From NCBI GenBank assembly GCA_000002435.2, contig CM018792.1: a stretch of 64,000 nt of DNA, one strand, 5' to 3'. A model generated the notes under the pieces. That model was not told the origin of the DNA and searched no databases. It saw nothing but the letters and a program-made list of their open reading frames with translations. Made by a program: the position numbers and the translations under genes. Position 1 is the first letter of the stretch; each line of letters starts with the position of its first letter. The DNA is from Giardia intestinalis. Taxonomy: Eukaryota. Positions 3,904 to 64,000 of the stretch are shown here, piece after piece.

Positions 3904-6900
3904 CTACTTAACTCTACCAAGGTCAAGATAGCGACATATCTCAGATTGGATTTCAGGTCGGAGAGCCGCCGGCGCCGTAGAGCCTGCGGCTAGCTTCTGT
4001 AGTGCTGTCTCTCCGAACTGTGGGGCACAAGCTGGAGCTAGGATCCTTATGCACGACAGTTGTCCGTACTTCACTGCAAGATCGAGAGCCGATTGGTCAT
4101 TCTCATCAACCAGGTCTAGCTCGTAGGGGACGAGATACTTGACTATGTTTGGATGATCCCACGCCGCAGCGTGCATTAGCGCTGTCCAGCCTAAAGAGTC
4201 CTGCTCGCCCGCTTCGGCGCTTCGCAAAACTTGAACTGCCTCGACGTGCCCCACCTGCGCTGCAATCATGAGAGACGTCATCTGCTGCTTGGTTTCTGTC
4301 ATCTTTTTTTCATACTCGCCCAGCCACTTCAGGCATCGTACGCTTTTCGCGACGATTGCCAGCATCAGCGCTACTGGCTTTCCGATCTCTTGTTTGTTGC
4401 TCAGGTGTATATTGCTGGATATGCGTATCCCTGACTCATGAGGCGCCAGGAGCCGGCATGCTTCTGCATTATCCTTCTCCGCAGCAATCATGAGCGCAGT
4501 TCGACCGTCCGGTCTCCGCATCCCCTTCTCACTGGCGATCAAGTGCTTGATTGCTGGGATGTTATTGCTATACACAGCGATCATCAGGGCTGTGTGTCCA
4601 TCTTTTGTACGCCGGCGAATGCTATCCTTGTATTGCACCAGTGGCTCTGCAGAGCGCATTGCTACGGCTATCATCAGCTGCGTAAAACCATCTTCCTCCA
4701 ACAGGCACTTTTCATGTGTGATAAGCAGCTTCAAGCACGCAACTCGACCCATCTCTATGGCGTAGCGTGAAGCGCACCAGCTCATACTATCGCGTCTTCC
4801 GGCCTGGTACGGTATCAGAATCTTTAATCTCGCACAGTCTCCTTCCCGTGCAGCCAACATCAAGAGGGTTCTACCTGTTGCAGATCCCTCGAGAATAGGT
4901 ATTGGTAGGTCAGCTTCGTACTTACAGAGCCTTTCCATAACATTTAGGTTCTTGTTCTCATATGCATGATAGAGGGCAGTCTTTCCTTTGAAGTCGGCAA
5001 GGCCCTTCTCATAAGGTCCGAGGACATCAATGAGACGCAGTGACTGGCGGTCAATGCAGTACATAAGAGCGGTCTTCTGGAGAGAATCCTGGACTCCGTG
5101 TTCATGCCGTGCCAGGATCATTGCAATGTCGTAGTAGCTTTTGCGGAGCGCAAGCATAAGTGCTGTGCACCCCTTATCGTCACGGCGTTTGGCGTGTGTT
5201 TTCCTTAACGAAAAAACAGCATCAATGTCGTTATTAGCCACCGCTTGAAATAATGCGTCCGGTCCAGGAGCAGAGATAGCCGTGTTCCAAATTTTCATTA
5301 TATTGGGGCTGAGTAGATATTGTGCTGTGGCTCTCTTGACATCGCCCTTGTTCACCGATCCAGGCGACTGAAGAGTCTCCGAATCAAGGGTGCATTTAGC
5401 TCCAGGAAGAGTCGGGGTTGATCTAGACAATGAAAATGGCGTACCGGCTAATGACTGTGAAGATTCACGAATAGGGGAATTCTTACCAGGAATCTGTGGG
5501 CTTGTCATTGTGTGTGAACTACTGGACGGATCAGTCAAACTATTATTGCTAATGAAGCTTGCTAGAACGCCCTTCATAGATGCACTGTTAGAGTGAATGT
5601 CCTGCTTAGGTAGAATCTCCTCGTAATAGTTAATGATTGTATTGATTGCGTCTGTGCTTCCATGCCGTAGTGCAAGAATAAATGGGGTGGTTCCGTTGGC
5701 TAGCACGAGATCTCCTTCCTCGGGCAATAGAGCTTCCACAGCATCTTTGCGATTGAAGATACACGCAAACATAAGAGCGGTGTAACCAAACGAGTCTGTT
5801 TTCCCCGCAAAACTCTTTTGCATCACTTTGAAAGAATTGATGTTATAACAGGCAACTGCCTTCATCAAAGGTGTGAACTTGCACTTCTTTAAAAGGTCCT
5901 TTTCATAGCTCAGTAGAACACTGATAGAGTCTTCAGCTCTGGAAGTAAATGCTAAATGCAACGCAAACTCTTCAGAATCTGTTTCCATGCCTGCCTCCAT
6001 CTCGGCAAGAGCCTTCACCAACGTCTTATTGTTATTCATAGATGCGTACATTAAAGCTGTCATCCCATCAGGTCCTCTGATTCCTGCTTCAACACTGACT
6101 AGCTCGAGTCCCTCTTCTGTGCGCCCTCTTTCACAAGCCAACATAAGAGCCGTCATCCCATTATTATTCATCTTCTTAGCCATGTAAGGAATCAGCGTCC
6201 GTATTAGCTCGATATCCCCCATTTCTACGGCACGCATAAGATACGTTGTGTTTGTTGCCTCATTTGTTGTGAGCTGCGCTACAATTCCTTGCGCGTGGCT
6301 TGCGCTGAGCAAAATCCGCAAAATGTCGATGTTCTGATTTTGAAGCGCGATCATGAGGGGGCTTCGGCTTCCTAATTCCCGCAAGCCTAGCTCTAAACTT
6401 GCAAGCAAACGCACTATCTCTAGGTTAGAATGCTCTACAGCTATTAGCAACGCCGTTTCTTTCTTTTTATTCCGTAGGCCAGCCTCCGACTTTAGTAGAA
6501 GCTTCGCCACATCAGCCGCGCCAGTTCGGGCACAATACATTAGAGCACTATTTCCTGCAGAATCGCGTATACCTGATTGGTAAATGTAGTCTTGAGCTAG
6601 CAGAACATCGTTACTTATGGCTGCTTTCATTAGCGAGGTGACTCCCATACCATCAGGATAAAACGTAGTTCGAAGAAAGTTTTCAACAGTTCGGAGAGGC
6701 TCCATGACGAGCATTGTGGAAATCCATGGAAATCTGTCGGGGAAATATTTTAGAACAGCCTCATTTATCGTGGGCCATTTCTTCTTTGTGCTATCTTCGC
6801 TGTCCTCACTATCCTCGCTATAAGTAGTGCTTCTTGACCCTTCAACGACAATACCGCATGGTTGAACTGCCACACATACGGTAGAATTCAAGCTATTAAG

Positions 6901-53965: not shown

Positions 53966-54103
53966 TAGGAAAACTTTACGCCCTGAGTGACTGAAATATA
54001 TGCTCAAACAGGATAGGGACAGGACACGAGCTGACTAGTCCAGGACGCGATGCAAAGGTCTTAAAAAAATCTCCGCTTCAGGTAGCTCGACTTGTGTACG
54101 TCC

Positions 54104-54808
54104 ATGGCGATACGCGAACTGGAGCTGTTTCTAAATCACTCTTTGACAGACGAGATTCGATCGCAGCTCATAACCAAGGTCACAGAGATGCTCACCATGC
54201 CCGAGCTCGTCCACTTCCGTTGCTCACTACAGTCAGACTATGGTATTGCTGCACCTATAGGTCTCTACGACATTCTTCGGAGGATTCCCCTGTTTGCTGA
54301 CCATGCCTTTATGACCATCGGAGAGGTCTTTAGTGGCCTTTTTGCTGTAGCAGACTCCTTTCATGAGGTCATTACAGAGATTCAACCGTCTCTCGAGCAA
54401 TACGAAGGCCATATTTTGTGGCTCCTAACAGACACTTATAGTAGCCTCATGCACCAATCCCGTAGCTTCAAAGATTTGGGGATTCCCGTGAAGCGGATTA
54501 AGATGATTCTCAAAACAGCTTATAAGTTTACCCCAGCGCTTCCCAAGACCATTCATGACTTGGATGCCGATACAATGTCCCAGGTTCCGTCCCATGATGA
54601 GCTTAACAAACTACGCGAATACGTTGACCAGCTCCCTAACGCACAAGCCCGAGCGTTAGTGTTTGGTAAACTCTTAAGAGAGATAGGGAGGCGCCCCGAG
54701 GAAATAATCCTCAATGGGAACCAATTAAATCTAGAACTCACTGACCTGCCCTCCTTCGCATTCTGGGTCCTACTGGATGCTGCACAAGCGTATGCAACTC
54801 CATCATAG
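54104..54808 (+). CDS. hypothetical protein, 234 aa
   Basis: Track start was TTG at 54092; first ATG is at 54104. No recognisable motif. Confidence 0.45.
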   Translation: MAIRELELFLNHSLTDEIRSQLITKVTEMLTMPELVHFRCSLQSDYGIAAPIGLYDILRRIPLFADHAFMTIGEVFSGLFAVADSFHEVITEIQPSLEQYEGHILWLLTDTYSSLMHQSRSFKDLGIPVKRIKMILKTAYKFTPALPKTIHDLDADTMSQVPSHDELNKLREYVDQLPNAQARALVFGKLLREIGRRPEEIILNGNQLNLELTDLPSFAFWVLLDAAQAYATPS

Positions 54809-56254
54809 CAATCGTGGCCGACCTTGTGTTTGGTGAAGGTATTAGGTGGACTTAAGCTCGCTAGCTAAATGGTCACTGAATTCTCTGAGCAAAAGGGCAC
54901 GAGGTTCTGTAAATGCCGTTTTCTCTAGCTGGCTTTCAAATAAAGTTATCTCATCTATAGCCTCCTGGTGAGAAAGGCTGCGCGGGTCCTCTGAGAAGGT
55001 TATTTCCATTTTAAAAATAGATCTATTCTATCTCCTTACTTATCAATGCGTATTTGCACAGATAAAGTGTACGTATGTACGTGATTAATATCTGAATGTC
55101 CAGAGTAGATAATTACTTAACCTCGAATGTACGTTTTCACCTCATCATGAACGTGGTGCGTGGAAGAACGACACTAATACCCTTCATGACTCAGACTATT
55201 TACTAGAGGGTTCTATGCCGTTTCAGATGAGACAGCATCATTCGCTGAGCCAGGTGCTTGGATCTGTACGTTTACTCTCTCCGTTTCACCGAGGTGGGGT
55301 TGCCATCTGCCACCTGAGCAATCCCCTCCATGCGAGCCACCGCCACTCTGGGTAGGCGGGTCCCTCCCGCCCTTGCACCAGCTGAGATCCAGAGTCCAGA
55401 GTCTAGAAACCAAAATCTGAGAATATGAGCTCAGATGTCAAGCGATTCCGGTGGGAGAAGAAGAAGTTTTCCACTTTCCCTCTCGGGAGTCTCTGTCGCT
55501 CTTCGCGGTGCCTTCCGAGGCTCTCCCATCTTCTGGCCTTTCGGGTCAGCTGTCGTCTGATATCTAGTGAGCACCCGTTGTCTCGGGCTTTTCCGTCAGC
55601 CACAGCAGTCTGGCCTCAGAAGCAGCTGACCCTGGCCATGTACTCCAGAGTCGCCTTGGTGCTGGTACTCTATCACGAAGATCGCATACGCCACGAACCT
55701 CAGGTGTCGATCCCTAGGTCCCTGAGGTGCTCCCTCGTCTTCTCGTGGAGGGTGCCGTCAGTCCCGAGTATGATCGGGAGGGTGCTCCCCGTATGCCTCT
55801 ATCTTAGAGTGGTAGTACGAGCTCATGGACGCCGGCTGGACCACTCCTATGTCGACGGCCTGGCTGGTGTCTGGAAAGAAGAGGTCCGGCTCTGGTTCTC
55901 CTTGTCATGGTCAACCCATACCTTCTGCTCGTGGATCACAGTGCACCTCTTCTTCGACATTATGTGATCAGTCATCCAACACGAGATCATGTCGACGCTC
56001 ACCCTATGCAGTGCGTCTGGCTCAGTGACGATGTGGTCTGCATCTCCTTGCATCGCACAGCACACTTGGAGGTGATGCTTTGGTCTGCCGAGACAGTCGG
56101 TCCAAGCCCGCATCTTTTCGAGAGGCGGCGGAAGGCGTCGTCCGGAAGCATCAGGAACGATCCGAAGACATGATTGATGTACGAGCCTGTGCTCACCGTT
56201 AGGTCGTCTCGCTCAGCAACCGGTTCGCGATGCTCCGTCGTCACGTCGAAGGTG

Positions 56255-56815
56255 TTAAATGCATCGCGCAGTTGCTTGTGATAGACGCCCGGCAGGTGGA
56301 CTCCCAGGCCGCCACTCTTCTTCGGTGCCGCCAGGAACGATCCACCTCTTCGGGTCAGAGCCGAGTATCCCTCCAAGGGCCTCTCCGACCTGCCTGTCGA
56401 AGGATTCATATTGTTCAACTGGTGAGTCCATCTCGACGAGCGGTGCGTAGCCGGCCATCGGAATGGCGTTGATCCTGGCCAGCGTCAGCTTGGCGTGGTG
56501 GGTGATCGGCGCGTCCATCACCAGCTTCAAGCTCTCTGCTGCCTTCTCTATCGCCCTGGGGGCTATGGACTGCTTCTCCTTCGAGACCGGGGCCCCCGGG
56601 AAGGAGACCTCCTGTCCTCTTTGGGTGCTCTTGCACTTGTCAATGTTGACTGTCAAACCATATCGTTTCGCCAGGGCTGTCGCCTCTGTGATTATCCCCG
56701 TCGCGTCGCTGTCGTTGGCATGGAAGCTGAGTGCGTCGTCAGTGTAGGCAATGAGTAGGGTATCTCTCCTTCGGCTCCTGGTGAGCAGGTTCTGTCCCCC
56801 GCAGCACAGAAGCAT
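56255..56815 (-). pseudogene. reverse-transcriptase fragment of retroelement copy A
   Basis: Translation contains LLIAYTDDALSF (YxDD motif C) followed by GLTVNIDKCKSTQRG (non-LTR RT motif D/E pattern GLxlNxxKT). Flanked by stops and frame breaks. Confidence 0.6.
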
Positions 56816-57279
56816 GCTCAGGGCCCTGAGGGACCGAGTCCAGGGGTGCAGCGTGGCGCAATTAGAGGAAGGCCTCGATGTAGTTCTCAGGATGAAGGGT
56901 ACACTCGCCTGGCCGAGGCCGTCTGCTGTTGGGGCTCTCGTTATGTCGAGCGAGGCCGCTGTGTTCCGTCAATCTGCATCTCCATGTATGCCATGCGGAC
57001 ACCACCCATGTGCGTTCAGGTGGAGTGCATCTGCTCGGTCTCTAGAAAGGCCAGTGTCTGGGTCTCCAGGGGGCTCAGCAGTATCTGTGAAACACAGCCA
57101 TGATCGTCCACTGATTGTGCTTGTCCTGTCTCATCATTGGGAAGAGGGTAGAACAAGAGTTCTTCCGCTCTCCAGACCTGGTTGACATCTGATCTTCGGG
57201 CTCTGGACGTGGATCTCAGGCGATGTATGGACAGGAGGTACCCGCTTGCCTAAGGCGGTGGCTCGCATGAGGGGATCAT
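56756..57279. repeat. copy 1 of a near-identical ~520-bp inverted repeat (partner at 61912-62432)
   Basis: Direct comparison: 56756-57279 equals the reverse complement of 61912-62432, apart from a few mismatches near 56760-56790. The identical 142-144-aa ORFs 56751-57185(+) and 62006-62434(-) reflect this. Confidence 0.85.
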
Positions 57280-57465
57280 TCCAGGAAGATGGAACCGTTA
57301 CATTATATCTACTGCTGTTCAGCTGTGATATTACATTAGAACTTGATTCTATTAATTTCGATAAAGTAACATTAGACACCGAGAAGGAAGCAATGTACAC
57401 AAAAACTGACACACATCCACAAACAGCACGAAAGCGTAGTGAAATGGTCGCTATTCACTCTAGGA

Positions 57466-58497
57466 TCATTTCGAGAGGATATCTACTATCTCTTTGTGAC
57501 CCTTCTTCTTAGCGATGTCAAGGGCAGTAGTACGGGGCGGGTAACCACAGTAGTCATAGACTGTCATCAGCTGCCTCTCCCCTAAGAGTAACTCAACACA
57601 CTCTATGTGGTCACCCCACACCGCATTCATAAGAGCTGTCCATCCTTTATCATTCTTCATGCCACTTTCTCTTCCTAACAGAAGCCTGACACACTCTGGA
57701 TGGCCATTACGTGCTGCCCACATGAGAGCAGTTTGACCGGTATTATTCTCCATGCCACTCTCTTTTTTGAGCAGCTCTACAACCCCTCTGTGCCCTTGCG
57801 CTGCCGCATACATAAGCGCTGTCCATCCACCAGCATCCTGGCCCCTCCTCATGTGAAGGTTGTTTCTGACTGCACCGATATCACCACGGTAAGCGGCGTA
57901 TATGAGTCCTGTCCACCCTGAGACACTGCTCTCATACCCCACCAGAAGCTCAACGCACCTAGGATAGTCTACCAGGGGGTCATTGGAACGGCCACTCCGT
58001 GCCGCGAATACGAGAGCGGTCCAACCGCCTACTTTCGCACCTCCTTCGTAACCCGCTAGCAGTTCTACTATTTCTGCGTATCCATGTGCCGCAGCCATCA
58101 TCAGCGCGGTTCCCCCCTTGTACATGGTCATCTCATCTATCTTGAAGCCTCCGGACGCCTTCTGTCCTTCCTGAAGGGGAGCAAGCGCCTTCACAGTACC
58201 TACATCATTTCTGTCAACAGCTCTCATGAGGGCAGTAAATCCGTTTTTGTCGGTGGGGTCGAGGAGCTCAACGATGTTCTTGTGTCCTGCCCTCGCAGCT
58301 ATGATCAGCGCTGTATCCCCCTCGCTGTTCTTCTTGTCTTTGTCTGAGAGATGCTTCTCGGCTGCCTCGAAGTCTCCGTCCGCAGCAGCGTGCATGAGAG
58401 GCGTCCAGGACAAATCCCTTGTGAACTGAGGTCCTGCATCGACATCCCCTTGACCAGAACTGCCTACTCGCGACCCTCCGCGTTCGTTGCGTGCCAT
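57466..58497 (-). CDS. protein 21.1 family ankyrin-repeat protein (343 aa)
   Basis: ATG at 58495-58497. Repeats GDTALIIAARAGH, GFTALMRAVDRND, GGTALMMAAAHGY, GWTALVFAARSGR, GWTALMYAAAQGH, GQTALMWAARNGH, GWTALMNAVWGDH. Confidence 0.75.
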   Translation of the reverse strand: MARNERGGSRVGSSGQGDVDAGPQFTRDLSWTPLMHAAADGDFEAAEKHLSDKDKKNSEGDTALIIAARAGHKNIVELLDPTDKNGFTALMRAVDRNDVGTVKALAPLQEGQKASGGFKIDEMTMYKGGTALMMAAAHGYAEIVELLAGYEGGAKVGGWTALVFAARSGRSNDPLVDYPRCVELLVGYESSVSGWTGLIYAAYRGDIGAVRNNLHMRRGQDAGGWTALMYAAAQGHRGVVELLKKESGMENNTGQTALMWAARNGHPECVRLLLGRESGMKNDKGWTALMNAVWGDHIECVELLLGERQLMTVYDYCGYPPRTTALDIAKKKGHKEIVDILSK

Positions 58498-59469
58498 TCC
58501 TTATTTTTCTTGCCGAAGAAAGGGGCTAAAACACCTGTAATTCACACTGTAATCTACAGCTCAGTCAAATGATGTCCATACATGTATTCCTATATAACTT
58601 TGGCCCTTGCTGATTCTTTCTGTTGCATATAACTGTATGTAGTGTTATGCGTCCATGCCCGGCCTCTGCTCCTTCGTGCTGCGGCTAGCTGGGATCTTGT
58701 GAAGTACTAGGCTAGAGCCATTAACAGCGTGGAACACTGGTGGGCTTTCATCTCACCCGCAAAGTGCAGTGCGCTATGCTCTGTCTGTGAGCACTCATGC
58801 TTGACTACCCGAATGGGCTGCGTGATGTAGACTACTCTGAGACTGTAACCAAGGATTCGTGCTCAGTGCTAATTCATCTGCCGCTGTCGTTGGACCTCGT
58901 GGCAGCCATGATCTCAGATGCCTTGTGCTTACATCTGTAAGTCTTCTATGGTTGAAGAAAGTGTCTGTACGAACAGCGGGGGGCTCTCCCATGGGTTGCA
59001 GCTATGCCCATTGCAGGACCTTCAGGTCTCCTTGGACGTAGCCTGCCCAAGCTCAGTGGACTGCTGTGCAGAGAGTGTAGTCGCTCTTCGCCTGTTACGC
59101 TTTCTCCTGAAGAAGGCACGTTGCGGGAGCACTTCAAGCCCTACACTAGTGGAAAGCGCCATCGGCAGAACGCAGTCCACTGAATTCTCACGAAAGAAGC
59201 CGCTTCCACAGGATGCCCGTGGAGAGCGGCGCAGACGGCCCCCGCTCTATCTACACATGCAAGCTGGCCCCTTCGGCACACACGTTCTGCACCTTGTACG
59301 AGGCAGAGGGGTCCTGATGGGATAAAGTACCGACGCGTGTTACGGTGTGAGTGGGACGAATGACGAAGAACCAAAAAACGGTCTTACACATGCTAACAGC
59401 GTTGAACAGTGTACACTGTGGTCTCTATAGACCCACAAAGCCATCACAAAAAACGAGGAAACGACCCTG

Positions 59470-59904
59470 ATGAGCCAGGACGAGGGCAAAGCGGCAGAAG
59501 AATCCTTTGGCCGCTGGTTTTCTGCTGCACAGCGCGGAGATTGCGCCTATCTAAAACAGCATATAGCGACCATGCGGCGAGCCGTGGACTCCCGAGGAAT
59601 GACTGCGCTGATGCATGCAGCGGATGCAGGTCACGCATCGTATGTCCAAGCACTGGTTAGTGAAGCGTGCGAAATCAGCTCTGAGGGGTTCAAGGCTCTT
59701 AGGTACGCAATCCGCGCGTCCTCGATTGATGCTGCAGGAGTCTTGCTTCCGTATGAGGGCTCTGTTGAGACCTCTTCCGGTCTTTCTCCACTCCTTATGT
59801 TATTGAAGCGCAAGCAGGACACCATTGCACATATGTGCTTTGAGCATATGGATTCGTCTAAAGATCTGGCTCAAGGGAAGGATGGGGAGTTAGAAAGATA
59901 TTAA
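59470..59904 (+). CDS. short ankyrin-repeat (21.1-like) ORF, 144 aa; possibly the N-terminal fragment of a split gene
   Basis: ATG at 59470. Contains GMTALMHAADAGHASYVQALV. Its stop overlaps the next ATG in TAATG (59902-59906). Confidence 0.5.
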   Translation: MSQDEGKAAEESFGRWFSAAQRGDCAYLKQHIATMRRAVDSRGMTALMHAADAGHASYVQALVSEACEISSEGFKALRYAIRASSIDAAGVLLPYEGSVETSSGLSPLLMLLKRKQDTIAHMCFEHMDSSKDLAQGKDGELERY

Positions 59905-61148
59905 TGTTTGCTACTGAGCTGAACGACTACGGGCTCCTGCAGGATGCCATCCGTCGCTGTCATAAGCTGCCTGCGGGCGATATAGCTGAAGTACTTTCTC
60001 TCGAAACAGCTACCGGCCCAACCTTTTGCATAACGTACCTCATGGGTGTGCTTGACGGATTCGCACACCGGGATGACTCAAGGCGCCAACACGCTTCTCC
60101 CACACTGATCACAACGACTCCAGATGTTGTAAAGGGTGGCCCCAAAGTAGATGAGAACGGCAACACTCTCTTGATGAGGGCAGTCATGACCTTCAACTAT
60201 AAGAAGATGCCCGACTATTCTTCTATCCTGTGCAGAAGCGTGAACAGGGAGGGGAAGACTGCGCTCATGATCGCGGCAGAAATAGGCAATGAGTCCGCTG
60301 CGGCAATACTCAGGAAATACGAGGCGAAGATCCAAGATCCTGCTGGAATGACGGCCCTGATGTTCGCCGTGAACAAGGGAAATTTAAAGCTCGTCCAGAC
60401 GCTGTTAAAGTATGAGGTTGGTCTGAAGGACGTTGCAGGCCGGACGGCGCTGATGCATGCAGTACTATCAAACAAGCAGCCTATTATTCAGGAACTTATC
60501 AAGTGTGAGACTAGCAACCAAGACTTTCAGGGCAAAACAGCCCTTATCTATGCCGTAGAGCAGAACCTTTATCAAGCCTGCAAGGCGCCCATTCCTTATG
60601 AAGCGGGCTTGGTGGACCATAGGGGTCTGCGTGCAATAGATTATGCCAAGCTCTTCGACAATATGGAGCTGATAGATCTTTTAGAGGACTCAGAAGGAAT
60701 TTCACGAAACTCTCTTCAGCAGATCCTGCTTCGTCACGGGTGGCTAGCGCCACGCATATCCAGGCCCAGCCCCAGTCGTAGTAGCCCTAAGCCGGCTCTC
60801 TCTGGTTCCACTGTGAGCAAGCCCACTACTTCAACACAAGATAAGCAGCACACTACTGTAGATGTGAATAAAGAAGGCTCACTGCCTGAAGACGCGAAGG
60901 TATTTTCCACCGATCTTATCTCTGCTGTCCACGCCAGTAGGTACTATGACATCGGTGTTCTAGCCCCACATCTTGCCAACATGAGAGATCACCACAACCT
61001 CACGGCACTCCACTACGCTATCTACCAGAATAAACGAGTGGCAGTACGCATCTTGCTTCCTCACGAATACGAATCCCTTAATGGGTTTACTATTCCACCA
61101 GAGACGCGACCAGAGATAGTTGAGATGATAAACCTCTATAGGAAGTGA
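59904..61148 (+). CDS. protein 21.1 family ankyrin-repeat protein (414 aa)
   Basis: ATG at 59904 (frame +2 relative to the previous ORF). Repeats GNTLLMRAV, GKTALMIAAEIGN, GMTALMFAVNKGN, GRTALMHAVLSNK, GKTALIYAVEQN, LTALHYAIYQNK. Confidence 0.65.
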   Translation: MFATELNDYGLLQDAIRRCHKLPAGDIAEVLSLETATGPTFCITYLMGVLDGFAHRDDSRRQHASPTLITTTPDVVKGGPKVDENGNTLLMRAVMTFNYKKMPDYSSILCRSVNREGKTALMIAAEIGNESAAAILRKYEAKIQDPAGMTALMFAVNKGNLKLVQTLLKYEVGLKDVAGRTALMHAVLSNKQPIIQELIKCETSNQDFQGKTALIYAVEQNLYQACKAPIPYEAGLVDHRGLRAIDYAKLFDNMELIDLLEDSEGISRNSLQQILLRHGWLAPRISRPSPSRSSPKPALSGSTVSKPTTSTQDKQHTTVDVNKEGSLPEDAKVFSTDLISAVHASRYYDIGVLAPHLANMRDHHNLTALHYAIYQNKRVAVRILLPHEYESLNGFTIPPETRPEIVEMINLYRK

Positions 61149-61208
61149 AGCTCTCATATAAGTACCCATTCAATCTGTATAGGCAGGCCTGTGAGGTATC
61201 TATGGAAC

Positions 61209-61865
61209 TCATTTCTTTTTACCGCCACGTGAGTTGTTCTTGAAGAAGATTATGTCCCCATCTTCAACAACGTAGTTCTTCCCTTCGGTGCGGACCTTCC
61301 CGGCTGCCTTGGCCTCTGCTTCGGACCCTAACCTCTTGAGATCCTTATAAGTGTAAACCTCTGCACATATAAAATAGTCGCGGAAGTCGCTGTGGATAAC
61401 CGCGCCTGCGTCCGGTGCCTTGGTGTATTTTCTGACCGTCCAGCATCTAACTTCGTCTGCACCACATGTGAAGAAATGACAGAGGTTCAATGCCTTATAT
61501 CCCGTCTTGATGATCTTATCGAGAGCCAACTCCACAACGGAACCGTCAGGGAGCTTGTATTTTGAGGGGAGCTCTCTGAGGTAAGCATTTCTAGCCTCTG
61601 CAGAGCCTAGCTCCAAAAGTGTCGCCTCTAGCTTGGCGCTGTACGGCACTATATGCGCAGTCTCGTTTTTGGCCGTTATCCGTTCCTGTATCTTAGTAAG
61701 GAACTTATTCTTCTTCTTACTATAATCTGCCTCACTCATGTTCAAAAGGTAGACCACAGGCTTGCAACTAAGCAACTGCAGCTCGTTGAGAATCTCCACC
61801 TCACGGGACGACCAGCCCTGGGCAAAGAGGTCCTTCTTTTCCTTGAGTAGTCCCTCTATTTTTAG
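61209..61865 (-). pseudogene. 5'-truncated OLA1/YchF (Obg-like ATPase) fragment: C-terminal half only, G-domain missing
   Basis: Translation aligns with human OLA1 residues ~200-396 (KPVVYLLNMSEADYSKKKNKF, ALNLCHFFTCGADEVRCWTVRKYTKAPDAGAVIHSDFRDYFICAEV, GKNYVVEDGDIIFFK). The track ORF starts with GTG at 61883, inside retroelement ITR sequence. No Walker A / G1-G4 region and no ATG until codon 49. Homology stops exactly where the ITR of copy B begins. Confidence 0.6.
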
Positions 61866-61911
61866 GTTTACTTTCCGGTTCACCGGGGTAGGGTTGTCAC
61901 CTGCTGCTTGG

Positions 61912-62432
61912 ATGATCCCCTCATGCGAGCCACCGCCTTAGGCAAGCGGGTACCTCCTGTCCATACATCGCCTGAGATCCACGTCCAGAGCCCGAAGATC
62001 AGATGTCAACCAGGTCTGGAGAGCGGAAGAACTCTTGTTCTACCCTCTTCCCAATGATGAGACAGGACAAGCACAATCAGTGGACGATCATGGCTGTGTT
62101 TCACAGATACTGCTGAGCCCCCTGGAGACCCAGACACTGGCCTTTCTAGAGACCGAGCAGATGCACTCCACCTGAACGCACATGGGTGGTGTCCGCATGG
62201 CATACATGGAGATGCAGATTGACGGAACACAGCGGCCTCGCTCGACATAACGAGAGCCCCAACAGCAGACGGCCTCGGCCAGGCGAGTGTACCCTTCATC
62301 CTGAGAACTACATCGAGGCCTTCCTCTAATTGCGCCACGCTGCACCCCTGGACTCGGTCCCTCAGGGCCCTGAGCATGCTTCTGTGCTGCGGGGGACAGA
62401 GCCTGCTCACCAGGAACTGAAGGAGATACTCC
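61912..62432. repeat. copy 2 of the near-identical ~520-bp inverted repeat (partner at 56756-57279)
   Basis: Reverse complement matches 56756-57279 almost base for base. Flanking retroelement sequence is only ~80-85% similar. Confidence 0.85.
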
Positions 62433-62463
62433 ACTCAGTGTCTATATTGACGACAGTGACGCG

Positions 62464-62655
62464 ATGGGGACAGTCACAGAGGCGACAGGCCTGGCGAAGC
62501 AACATGGCTTGACGGTCAGCACTGGGTGTAGGAGCACTGAGGGGCAGGAGGCCTCCTTCCTGGCCGGTCTCAAGGATCCCCCAAGACAACCGAAGGCCGA
62601 AGCCAGTGATGGCACCAATCACTCGCCAAGCTGGCCGGGATGGACCCACACGTGA
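62464..62655 (+). pseudogene. reverse-transcriptase fragment of retroelement copy B
   Basis: TVTEATGLAKQHGLTVSTGCRSTEGQEASF parallels copy A's IITEATALAKRYGLTVNIDKCKSTQRGQEVSF. The upstream YIDD box is in another frame. Confidence 0.45.
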
Positions 62656-63127
62656 CCCATGTGAATCCCTCGACAGGCAAGTCGGGATCCTTGGGGTGCT
62701 TGGCTGGCAGAGGCGGACTGATCCTGCCTGCACCGAAGAGTGGTGGCGGCTCGCATGAGAAATCACTCAGATAACAGATGAGAGTAAATCAGGGGACTTT
62801 GTTGAAAAAGAAACGGCGACTCGAACTTCACCCACCACGAAGGAAGACCAAGGATAGGCGCCACCGGTAGACCAGAGAGTCTACAAGAAGGCCTGAATTC
62901 AAGGTAGATCGATGTGTACACCCAGACAGAGCATATCCTCATGGAGCAGCCGAGGAGCGCCCAGATTCTGAATGTGTCACTAAAGAGGACTCTCTCGTCA
63001 TGTTATTCGCAACCAACCCTCATCTTTGGATGACCAGGACTTAAATGAAAGCTTACCCGTGAGATCCTTGAATGCACTTGCGGGCAGGCCCCAGCAACAC
63101 ATCTACATGAGCTACATACGGTGACGC

Positions 63128-63134
63128 GTTTACT
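63128..63134 (-). terminator. Giardia polyadenylation signal AGTAAAC (AGTRAAY class) 13 nt downstream of the VSP stop codon
   Basis: Minus-strand sequence after the TAG stop reads GTACTTAGGTAGTAAACGCG. Confidence 0.55.
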
Positions 63135-63146
63135 ACCTAAGTACAT

Positions 63147-64000
63147 CTACGCCTTGCCCCTGCAGATGAACCACCAGCAGAGGAATCCGACGAGGCCTCC
63201 TACAACAACAATCACAGCGACGGAGATCCCCGCGATGGCCCCCGTGGAAAGGCCACTCCTGTTGGTGCTGTCTCCTCCAGTATCTCCGCCGGTGCCATCG
63301 TCAGCCTTTTGTTGCGTTACGTAACAGGTGACAGGGCCATTGCCACCAGCTGGCGGGGCACAGCTTATGCAGTTTTCTACACCAGTTATTGCATTAGAGC
63401 TAGCCTTATCACTATCCGTGCATTTGAAGCATTTATCACCGGCACCTTTGTAATACCCTGCTAAGCAATCTGTGCAGGTTTCCTTACTACCCGCACACTT
63501 CACACATCCTTCAGTACACGCCGGACATTTTCCTCCAGCTGGGCTTTGTCCATTGGCACACGTTTGGCATTGTCCCTTATTCTGTGCAGCCGTACACACA
63601 GAGCTACCAGGAAGCTTCTGTGTGTTGTAGCATCCGCCCGATAACAGAGCGTAGTTTGCCCCACACTCAGTGCATTTCCCGCCACTTGCCTTACATCCGG
63701 AGGCATCTCTCGCTGTTGCAGGTATGGATGTGCAGACGCCGTCGACTGGGGCGTACCCCTCCTCGCACTGATCGCAGTACTTCGAGCCTCCGACGTTCAG
63801 TGAGCAGCCGTCGGCCTTGCAGTGGGCCATAAAGTCTCCCGTGCACTCCTTTATACAGGTACCCTTAGCATTCGTCTCATCACGCTTCAACACGTATCCC
63901 GGATAGCAGGCCGTGCACGACGTTTCTGCGTTAGTACTACAGCTTGCGCACGATTCGTGGCACAGATTACAAACGTTAGCGTCAGTGCGAGTTCCCGCGG
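63147..64000 (-). CDS. variant-specific surface protein (VSP); 3' portion only, N-terminus lies beyond the window end
   Basis: CXXC-rich ectodomain and Gly/Thr-rich spacer, then TM helix AIAGISVAVIVVVGGLVGFLCWWFI and the invariant C-terminal CRGKA. The frame is open to nt 64000. The track's M at 63893 is GTG (Val). Confidence 0.85.
   Translation of the reverse strand, partial: AGTRTDANVCNLCHESCASCSTNAETSCTACYPGYVLKRDETNAKGTCIKECTGDFMAHCKADGCSLNVGGSKYCDQCEEGYAPVDGVCTSIPATARDASGCKASGGKCTECGANYALLSGGCYNTQKLPGSSVCTAAQNKGQCQTCANGQSPAGGKCPACTEGCVKCAGSKETCTDCLAGYYKGAGDKCFKCTDSDKASSNAITGVENCISCAPPAGGNGPVTCYVTQQKADDGTGGDTGGDSTNRSGLSTGAIAGISVAVIVVVGGLVGFLCWWFICRGKA

Follow-up and report, generated by a model that had tools for sequence, protein, structure and literature searches.

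Two inverted remnants of a Giardia retrotransposon of the type that lacks long terminal repeats (non-LTR), copy A and copy B, bracket a 4.6-kb segment in a 64,000-nt stretch of the Giardia intestinalis genome (contig CM018792.1 of assembly GCA_000002435.2), which was analysed at its full length and is called the window here. We favor the view, with a probability of roughly 0.7, that two old inverted elements have undergone repeated conversion between their arms and that a crossover inverted the intervening segment in the window's lineage; gene conversion is held with higher confidence than inversion. The comparison set consisted of the P15 (assemblage E) and DH (assemblage AII) assemblies, metagenome scaffolds from the European Nucleotide Archive (ENA), and short-read A-type contigs. 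The window copies are denoted wA and wB and the P15 copies pA and pB.

A repeat search of the window revealed two 520-nt arms in inverted orientation (56765–57284 and 61907–62426) that were 99% complementary and spaced 4622 nt apart. A base-by-base comparison showed that 515 of the 520 positions were identical, all five mismatches being close to the edges, and that the arms shared a perfect 489-nt core (57279–56791 = 61912–62400). On the inner side of this block, copy B lacked 28 nt around the YxDD box, and the identity between copies A and B fell to 75% with 138 gap columns (80% across 93 nt in the inner-side BLAST match), whereas on the outer side the terminal repeats were of two distinct types that were 36–40% alike. 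The near-identical tract thus sits in older homology (99–100% over 520 nt, as against 75% inward of it and 38% between the outer end types), and it fills all of the uninterrupted homology, from the point at which the A- and B-type ends diverge to the 28-nt indel. The earlier note on this DNA had recognized the near-identical inverted block, which is confirmed here with the limits given above, and the divergence of the reverse transcriptase (RT) regions outside it, although its figure of about 80–85% similarity for the latter was a little too high. It had also placed one motif at both inverted terminal repeats (ITRs) of each copy; the exact 23-mer ATCCCCTCATGCGAGCCACCGCC occurred only twice, at the 5' ends of copies A and B inside the block (0 occurrences expected by chance), and the 3' ends carried variants only.

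The comparison with P15 and DH points to conversion between the arms. At 38 sites in the block, wA and wB agreed with each other and differed from pA and pB, which likewise agreed with each other, and no site displayed either orthology pattern. The P15 arms had 100%-identical tracts of their own (100–200 nt amid 74–92% sequence), and the DH arms were 100% identical over about 200 nt. The window block diverged by 8–18% from the P15 arms and by 3.6–20% from the DH arms. Since the 38:0 site pattern favors homogenization within each genome and since P15 and DH have identical tracts of their own, these results indicate that the arms have been homogenized independently in each lineage by repeated arm-to-arm gene conversion, that is, by concerted evolution. 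The proposal of recent gene conversion, previously drawn from the step in identity, is therefore supported by evidence beyond that step.

The pair itself is old. Positions 5349–12696 of P15 contig L003 (ACVC01000118.1) were colinear with window positions 55271–62576 at 87.5% identity and contained both elements in the same inverted layout, with copy B at its full 2 kb. Because both elements are inverted around the same segment in P15, the inverted pair predates the split between assemblages A and E, and because the P15 copy B is of full length, the deletion in copy B is specific to the window's lineage. An eight-way alignment showed that the A-type 5' end always adjoins the ankyrin gene that encodes 343 aa in the window (window A, P15 A, and DH L010), and that the B-type 5' end borders the OLA1 fragment in every case (window B, P15 B, DH L009, and the ENA scaffolds L011 and L012). 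As the 5' truncation points and the end types differ, copies A and B look like independent insertions that were later homogenized, rather than the products of one inverted duplication.

The orientation of the segment relative to the elements differed between the window and the other assemblies. DH contig L009 (AHGT01000142.1) begins with the window's left flank (54813–55267) at 98–99% identity, followed by an element body that is 90–96% identical to the copy-A body and has the diagnostic indels of copy A, and continues through the block, a B-type end, the OLA1 fragment, the ankyrin pseudogene, and a 347-aa ankyrin gene, ending at the edge of the other block copy. In the independent ENA metagenome scaffold L011, a copy-A-like body was likewise joined to the OLA1 side, and the wA and DH bodies grouped with the OLA1-adjacent copy of P15 (90 versus 43 sites; 85.2% versus 79.9% identity). 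The window differs: there, the ankyrin side is joined to the left flank and the copy-A body, and the OLA1 side carries a deleted body divergent at the 75% level. Since DH L009, ENA L011, and P15 all place a copy-A-like body beside OLA1, the simplest reading of these sequences is that the 4.6-kb segment (57285–61906) was inverted in the window's lineage by an exchange inside the block. The suggestion that the block could serve as a substrate for inversion of this segment had been made before the assemblies were compared, and the orientation seen in these three assemblies is in keeping with it. Between the window and DH, the flanks diverged by about 1.3% and the block arms of the window differed by 0–1%; on these figures, the event would have taken place after the split between AI and AII.

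Several points weigh against this view. A near-identical repeat of 520 nt can be mis-joined by an assembler, so that the orientation difference is possibly an artefact of either the DH or the window assembly. The DH contig with the order ankyrin side, block, wB-like body, and VSP flank was not recovered, and metagenome scans with a copy-B-specific 20-mer and a block 33-mer gave no matches. DH contains two versions of the segment, in L009 and L010 (AHGT01000167.1), which are 97.35% identical (110 mismatches in 4489 nt) and thus possibly allow paralogy in place of simple orthology. Lastly, one sub-block (56771–56942) was 98% identical between the window arms and 80–84% identical to every DH and P15 copy, including the ankyrin-side arm of DH; a third element at another site, in place of the partner arm, may have donated it, or its source may be the old divergent lineage to which the remaining body of copy B belongs. 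As a separate observation, the 2.65% difference between L009 and L010 is far above the usual allelic variation of DH, and the two may be paralogous copies or divergent haplotypes.

If the block had been homogenized by polishing or collapse, or if the window or DH had been mis-joined, there would be no real inversion. This explanation draws on the fact that the block is crossed only by two 454 assemblies (DH and P15) and one short-read metagenome scaffold. A short-read contig from SRR22734123 matched the window at 100% over 11.2 kb. The short-read A-type contigs break off at the ITR (55299) or, in L013, some 25 nt within the block's inner edge; L021, which is 100% identical to the window, stops at 55299, and the window's own joins are without independent confirmation. 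Polishing, however, cannot yield a shared sub-block of 170 nt that differs by about 20% from all DH and P15 copies, three independent assemblies agree in placing a wA-like body beside OLA1, and the identical arm tracts in P15 and DH imply that homogenization belongs to the locus. A collapse is further opposed by the entry of A- and B-type ends into the same 5' region in separate contigs elsewhere (L010 for the former; L009, L011, and L012 for the latter) and by the break in L013 itself. We therefore consider an assembly artefact unlikely, while giving it real weight.

Other accounts of the block or of the whole unit are far less probable. The sharp step from 99–100% to 75% at both ends would be expected if one arm had been newly copied in by a recent inverted duplication or a fresh insertion, but older element homology surrounds the arms, in the form of outer ITR remnants on one side and the 75% RT region on the other, the two elements have the same A- and B-type junctions already in P15, and a new insertion would not land in register within a diverged older copy; this origin is very improbable. 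Purifying selection on a coding sequence or a regulatory RNA has nothing in its favor except the identity itself, and it is contradicted by stops in all three frames, by the lack of an Rfam match, and by the 38:0 site pattern, which is the reverse of constraint, together with the distances of the block from the P15 and DH arms given above. We give it almost no credence. The same applies to the idea that the units are DNA transposons, or that copy A, the segment, and copy B form a composite transposon mobilized by its terminal inverted repeats: long ITRs and outer flanks that are both non-syntenic with P15 would suit it, whereas the coding remnants are those of an RT, a CCHC motif, and a restriction-like endonuclease (RLE) with no transposase, no target-site duplication was found in any pairing of ends, the ends are constant at 3' and variable at 5' as in target-primed reverse transcription, and the flank differences are expected from recombination between dispersed copies.

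Table 1. Features of the retroelement pair, the bracketed segment, and the right flank in the window.
Feature	Coordinates	Strand	Remarks
Copy A, ITR-bounded 5'-truncated non-LTR remnant, GilD/Genie-2-like	55268–57300	−	2.03 kb, the full length of the 2-kb form; GC 57–59%
3' ITR of copy A	55268–55441	−	element end ...GGAGAGAGTAAAC at 55268; ITR core CCCTCCATGCGAGCCACCGCC at 55324–55344
CCHC zinc knuckle and RLE remnant of copy A	55702–56090	−	over three reading frames; three-frame translation compared with P0215 and P0216
Longest surviving open reading frame of copy A	56255–56815	−	186 aa; RT palm (YTDD box) and thumb; Pfam RVT_1 E = 1.5e-5
Arm 1 of the near-identical block	56765–57284	−	inner part of 5' ITR and RT domains 1–4; core 56791–57279
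A-type outer 5' end of copy A	57285–57300	−	GGTTCCATCTTCCTGG...; ITR stops about 25 nt short of the full end (eight-way alignment)
Inter-element segment, 4.6 kb	57301–61865		not oriented alike in the window and in the DH, ENA, and P15 assemblies
Intact ankyrin-repeat gene	57466–58497	−	343 aa; Pfam Ank_2 E = 1.3e-63; orthologues of 347 aa (DH) and 353 aa (P15)
Ankyrin pseudogene	59470–61148	+	144 + 414 aa; frameshift at 59904; paralogous to WB 'Ankyrin repeat protein 1' (562 aa)
OLA1/YchF C-terminal fragment	61209–61865	−	aa ~189–406 of 406; Pfam YchF-GTPase_C E = 1.2e-35
Copy B, same element family, internally deleted	61866–62790	+	about 960 bp missing; strong decay downstream of the block
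B-type outer 5' ITR, complete end	61866–61906	+	GTTTACTTTCCGGTTCACC...; 91–98% identical in wB, P15 pB, DH L009, and ENA L011/L012
Arm 2 of the near-identical block	61907–62426	+	perfect core 61912–62400
Divergent RT remnant of copy B	62427–62790	+	74–77% identical to all other copies; shortened 3' ITR ends ...GAGAGTAAATC
VSP C-terminal fragment	63147–63893	−	248 aa, CRGKA tail; Pfam VSP E = 3.9e-63; 360 bp beyond copy B

The limits and strands of both copies, and the internal deletion of copy B, agree with those first read from the sequence (Table 1). Three-frame translation of copy A showed many stops and frameshifts, with stops in all three frames. Its longest surviving reading frame scored 25.2 bits against RVT_1, under the 29.6-bit cut-off. 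The degenerate downstream region retained a CCHC motif at about 56010–56064, a PD..D core at about 55840–55895, and a stretch reading ...LPIILGTDG... to about 55705. The A-type end of copy A was 94–98% identical to those of P15 pA and DH L010 and 36–38% identical to the B-type ends, and the complete B-type 5' end begins GTTTACTTTCC.... In copy B, two AGAGTGGCGG-like microhomologies flank the deletion, in the RT region on one side and in the 3' ITR on the other; the junction is at about 62730–62745, and a degenerate GGTGGCGGCTCGCATGAG stands at 62742–62759 in the 3' end.

The ITRs (about 150–170 nt) are real and are a trait of the element family. In copy A, they comprised the inverted-repeat pairs 55324–55344/57254–57274, 55340–55391/57210–57261, and 55428–55441/57182–57195. 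Across five copies at three loci, 153–198 aligned columns contained 105–128 matches, and the cofold energies ranged from −182 to −228 kcal/mol as compared with −122 to −139 kcal/mol in shuffled controls, at least 10 standard deviations below them. The 3' end was constant across the copies (...GGAGAG(AG)TAAAC), and three different 5' ends were found, all within the ITR. The long ITRs noted at the outset as unusual for non-LTR elements were thus confirmed, but not as a novelty: Genie 2, reportedly described by Burke and colleagues in 2002, is said to have published ITRs of up to about 172 bp. No target-site duplication of at least 5 nt, which the earlier note had proposed looking for at 55268/57300 and 61866/62790, was found in any pairing of the element ends, whether in their present-day or pre-inversion arrangement, and no poly(A) was found at the element ends. 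The mismatches in the ITRs were examined for a bias toward G-U pairing, as a test for a sense-RNA panhandle under selection, and displayed no consistent strand bias; an Rfam scan of 54000–64000 gave no family match. The element bodies (55500–57000 and 62000–63000) had a GC content of 56–59%, as compared with 43–49% in the outer flanks, and GC-rich RT genes have also been reported for P15.

A stitched translation of copy A (410 aa) was 66% identical, with full coverage, to the P15 RT proteins P0215 and P0216, the latter named 'Reverse transcriptase [Giardia lamblia P15]'. Giardia relatives of copy A passed Pfam RVT_1 with E values of 2.5e-21 to 2e-27 (2.5e-21 for P0215 and P0216) and matched the RT structures of group II introns and R2. 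Downstream of the RT, P0215 contains CVLCGAKMDTNHIVNC, followed by RHD, KPDIFLPD...VDIGV, and LPIIIGTNG, of which window positions 55702–56090 hold the degenerate equivalent; the RLE and Cys-His assignments were made by motif inspection only; the libraries used contain no RLE profile. This order fits that of the ancient RLE-encoding non-LTR clades, in which the RT is followed by C-X2-C...H...C and then by the endonuclease and which include GENIE of Giardia (PMC2790886, PMC4640811). Relatives in P15 and the metagenomes have kept open reading frames (ORFs) of 475–524 aa, none of which is a complete zinc finger-RT-RLE protein. The family occurs at four loci with unrelated flanks, namely the pair in the window and in P15 L003, together with L023 and L024, in keeping with a dispersed element that lacks target specificity. 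A third 2.1-kb copy of the ITR form, with the same ends, lies at an unrelated locus adjoining a VSP gene (L023, P15 ACVC01000769.1, 4635–6753). A longer copy (L024, P15 ACVC01000033.1, 1–3373) extends at least 1.46 kb further on its 5' side; in place of the 5' ITR of the 2-kb form, it contains three or more C2H2-like fingers together with the N-terminus of the RT. The variable 5' ends and constant 3' end hint that the ITR form itself may have been retrotransposed.

Both copies are about 2-kb, 5'-truncated derivatives of a Giardia RLE-type non-LTR retrotransposon that resembles GilD/Genie 2. The identity with Genie2/GilD-like remnants proposed earlier is accordingly supported by the RT identity and by the CCHC and PD..D motifs; the element family is presumably GilD/Genie 2 itself, a name used here provisionally. 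One review puts GilD at telomeres, which we judge to be a misdescription, and no (TAGGG)n telomeric repeats were found in the window.

Within the segment, the gene previously called OLA1 proved to be a truncated paralogous pseudogene: the ORF at 61209–61883 encodes only the YchF C-terminal domain, the N-terminal half was searched for in the window and not found, and an intact 406-aa OLA1 stands beside the 562-aa ankyrin gene elsewhere in WB, P15, DH, and GS. The 414-aa part of the ankyrin pseudogene corresponds to the old gene model GL50803_115200. Window positions 60013–61870 were 98.3% identical to the A-type parental locus L008. The OLA1 fragment differed from the WB parental gene at 9 aa, as compared with 3 between the WB and P15 parental genes, and in a test for concerted evolution the differences between duplicate and parental protein ranged from 9 to 23 and were roughly additive. 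Since OLA1 and the ankyrin gene are intact elsewhere and the window has no N-terminal half, window positions 59470–61865 represent a decaying partial paralogous duplicate of the ankyrin–OLA1 locus, with the OLA1 piece a pseudogene rather than a disrupted gene. The homology with the parental locus stops at 61866/7, which coincides exactly with copy B's complete 5' end (GTTTAC...) and shows a GT microhomology, and the same OLA1/copy B junction is present at about 11956 in P15 L003. The duplicate may go back to parental-locus DNA copied when the retroelement originally inserted; possibly, instead, the other half of OLA1 was lost later by recombination. Insertion of copy B into OLA1 had been considered from L004–L007, which are 74–77% identical and have an intact OLA1 and no element, and was rejected, L004–L008 being the parental locus and not the orthologue.

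The 343-aa ankyrin protein had no record by exact look-up. Window positions 58035–58284 in its gene were 86–91% identical to both DH versions, as compared with 96–99% in the surrounding sequence, and may owe their divergence to conversion from a different ankyrin paralogue.

Outside the unit formed by copy A, the segment, and copy B, both flanks (left of 55268 and right of 62790) were non-syntenic between the window and P15, and the synteny breaks fell at the 3' ends of the elements, a pattern that fits recombination among dispersed family copies. Because of an in-frame stop upstream, the VSP fragment on the right is probably a pseudo-VSP. On the left, an uninterrupted ORF of 7852 aa on the minus strand (30449–54007) has its end at a distance of 1.3 kb from copy A; in many Giardia contigs it is annotated as a gene of 7838–7840 aa, with no Pfam match on record.

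In the explanation that we favor, two independent ancient insertions of a non-autonomous, ITR-bounded form of about 2 kb would have come to lie in inverted orientation around the 4.6-kb segment, which holds one ankyrin gene and the decaying partial ankyrin–OLA1 duplicate, and both elements are now dead. Their inverted homologous arms would be substrates for intrachromosomal homologous recombination, and repeated arm-to-arm conversion keeps parts of them identical within each genome, as the site patterns show. The latest event in the window's lineage would have copied about 520 nt, up to the 28-nt indel at the YxDD box, and this event, or one near it, would have been resolved as a crossover after the AI/AII split, flipping the segment relative to AII (DH) and E (P15), as the assembly comparison suggests. 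The structure is, on this explanation, a neutral by-product of repeat recombination that implies no function, and the elements also mark synteny breakpoints. A narrower version, in which one double-strand-break repair after the AI/AII split both copied the 520 nt and flipped the segment, and in which the locus might still flip among nuclei or isolates, is put forward only tentatively, and we would sooner doubt it than accept it.

The locus offers a base-resolved example of how RT remnants come to coincide with synteny breaks. Ectopic conversion has recurred between its two dead retroelements in no fewer than three lineages (A-I, A-II, and E), and the pair seems to have brought about an inversion by which closely related sub-assemblages differ. 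Giardia is tetraploid, binucleate, and putatively asexual, and its sexuality and capacity for recombination are debated; the locus suits a simple four-primer PCR assay of recombination and structural polymorphism among isolates. If a single repair event did account for both changes, the locus would be a datable trace of homologous recombination with crossover in Giardia. The annotation is also corrected, in that the OLA1-like and GL50803_115200 ORFs are decaying pieces of a partial duplication and not genes disrupted by the element. Apart from these points, the repeat biology is of an ordinary kind and shows no sign of function.

Arkhipova and Morrison reportedly described GilD in 2001 as a 'dead' Giardia non-LTR retrotransposon, and the GilD/Genie 2 family is placed in the RLE-encoding GENIE clade. 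The window copies share with GilD/Genie 2 the host Giardia, the RT-CCHC-RLE layout, dispersed non-telomeric sites, stops and frameshifts, and ITRs of about 150–170 nt. They differ in being of the 2-kb form, in which the 3' end, copied in inverted orientation, stands in place of the zinc fingers and N-terminal RT part seen in L024, and the long ORFs of the P15 and metagenome relatives differ from a picture in which all members are dead, the family being not uniformly dead across assemblages.

RT remnants have been reported where the synteny of WB with P15 breaks in Giardia (Jerlstrom-Hultqvist et al. 2010, PMC3091692) and between paired VSP genes of divergent orientation (Xu et al. 2020, PMC7000408, Table 2), and the window is alike in its GC-rich RT pseudogenes, its non-syntenic flanks, and the VSP fragment nearby. 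These reports describe a genome-wide association, and their searchable text is without this locus, the converted block, or the difference in orientation between AI and AII/E. The element family is a known one, as are the two processes, conversion and inversion mediated by inverted repeats, and the findings specific to this locus appear unreported in the literature text that is searchable.

Recombination between inverted repeats, with polymorphic inversion and conversion of the arms, is known from non-allelic homologous recombination in humans at the Xq28 emerin/filamin locus, at F8 int22h, and in the Y-chromosome palindromes. Compared with those systems, the Giardia arms are short (0.5–2 kb), decayed, and partly homogenized, and the difference in orientation comes from assemblies and not from reads. 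The likeness lies in the inverted homologous arms, in a spacer whose orientation differs by lineage, and in arms that are most alike within a genome.

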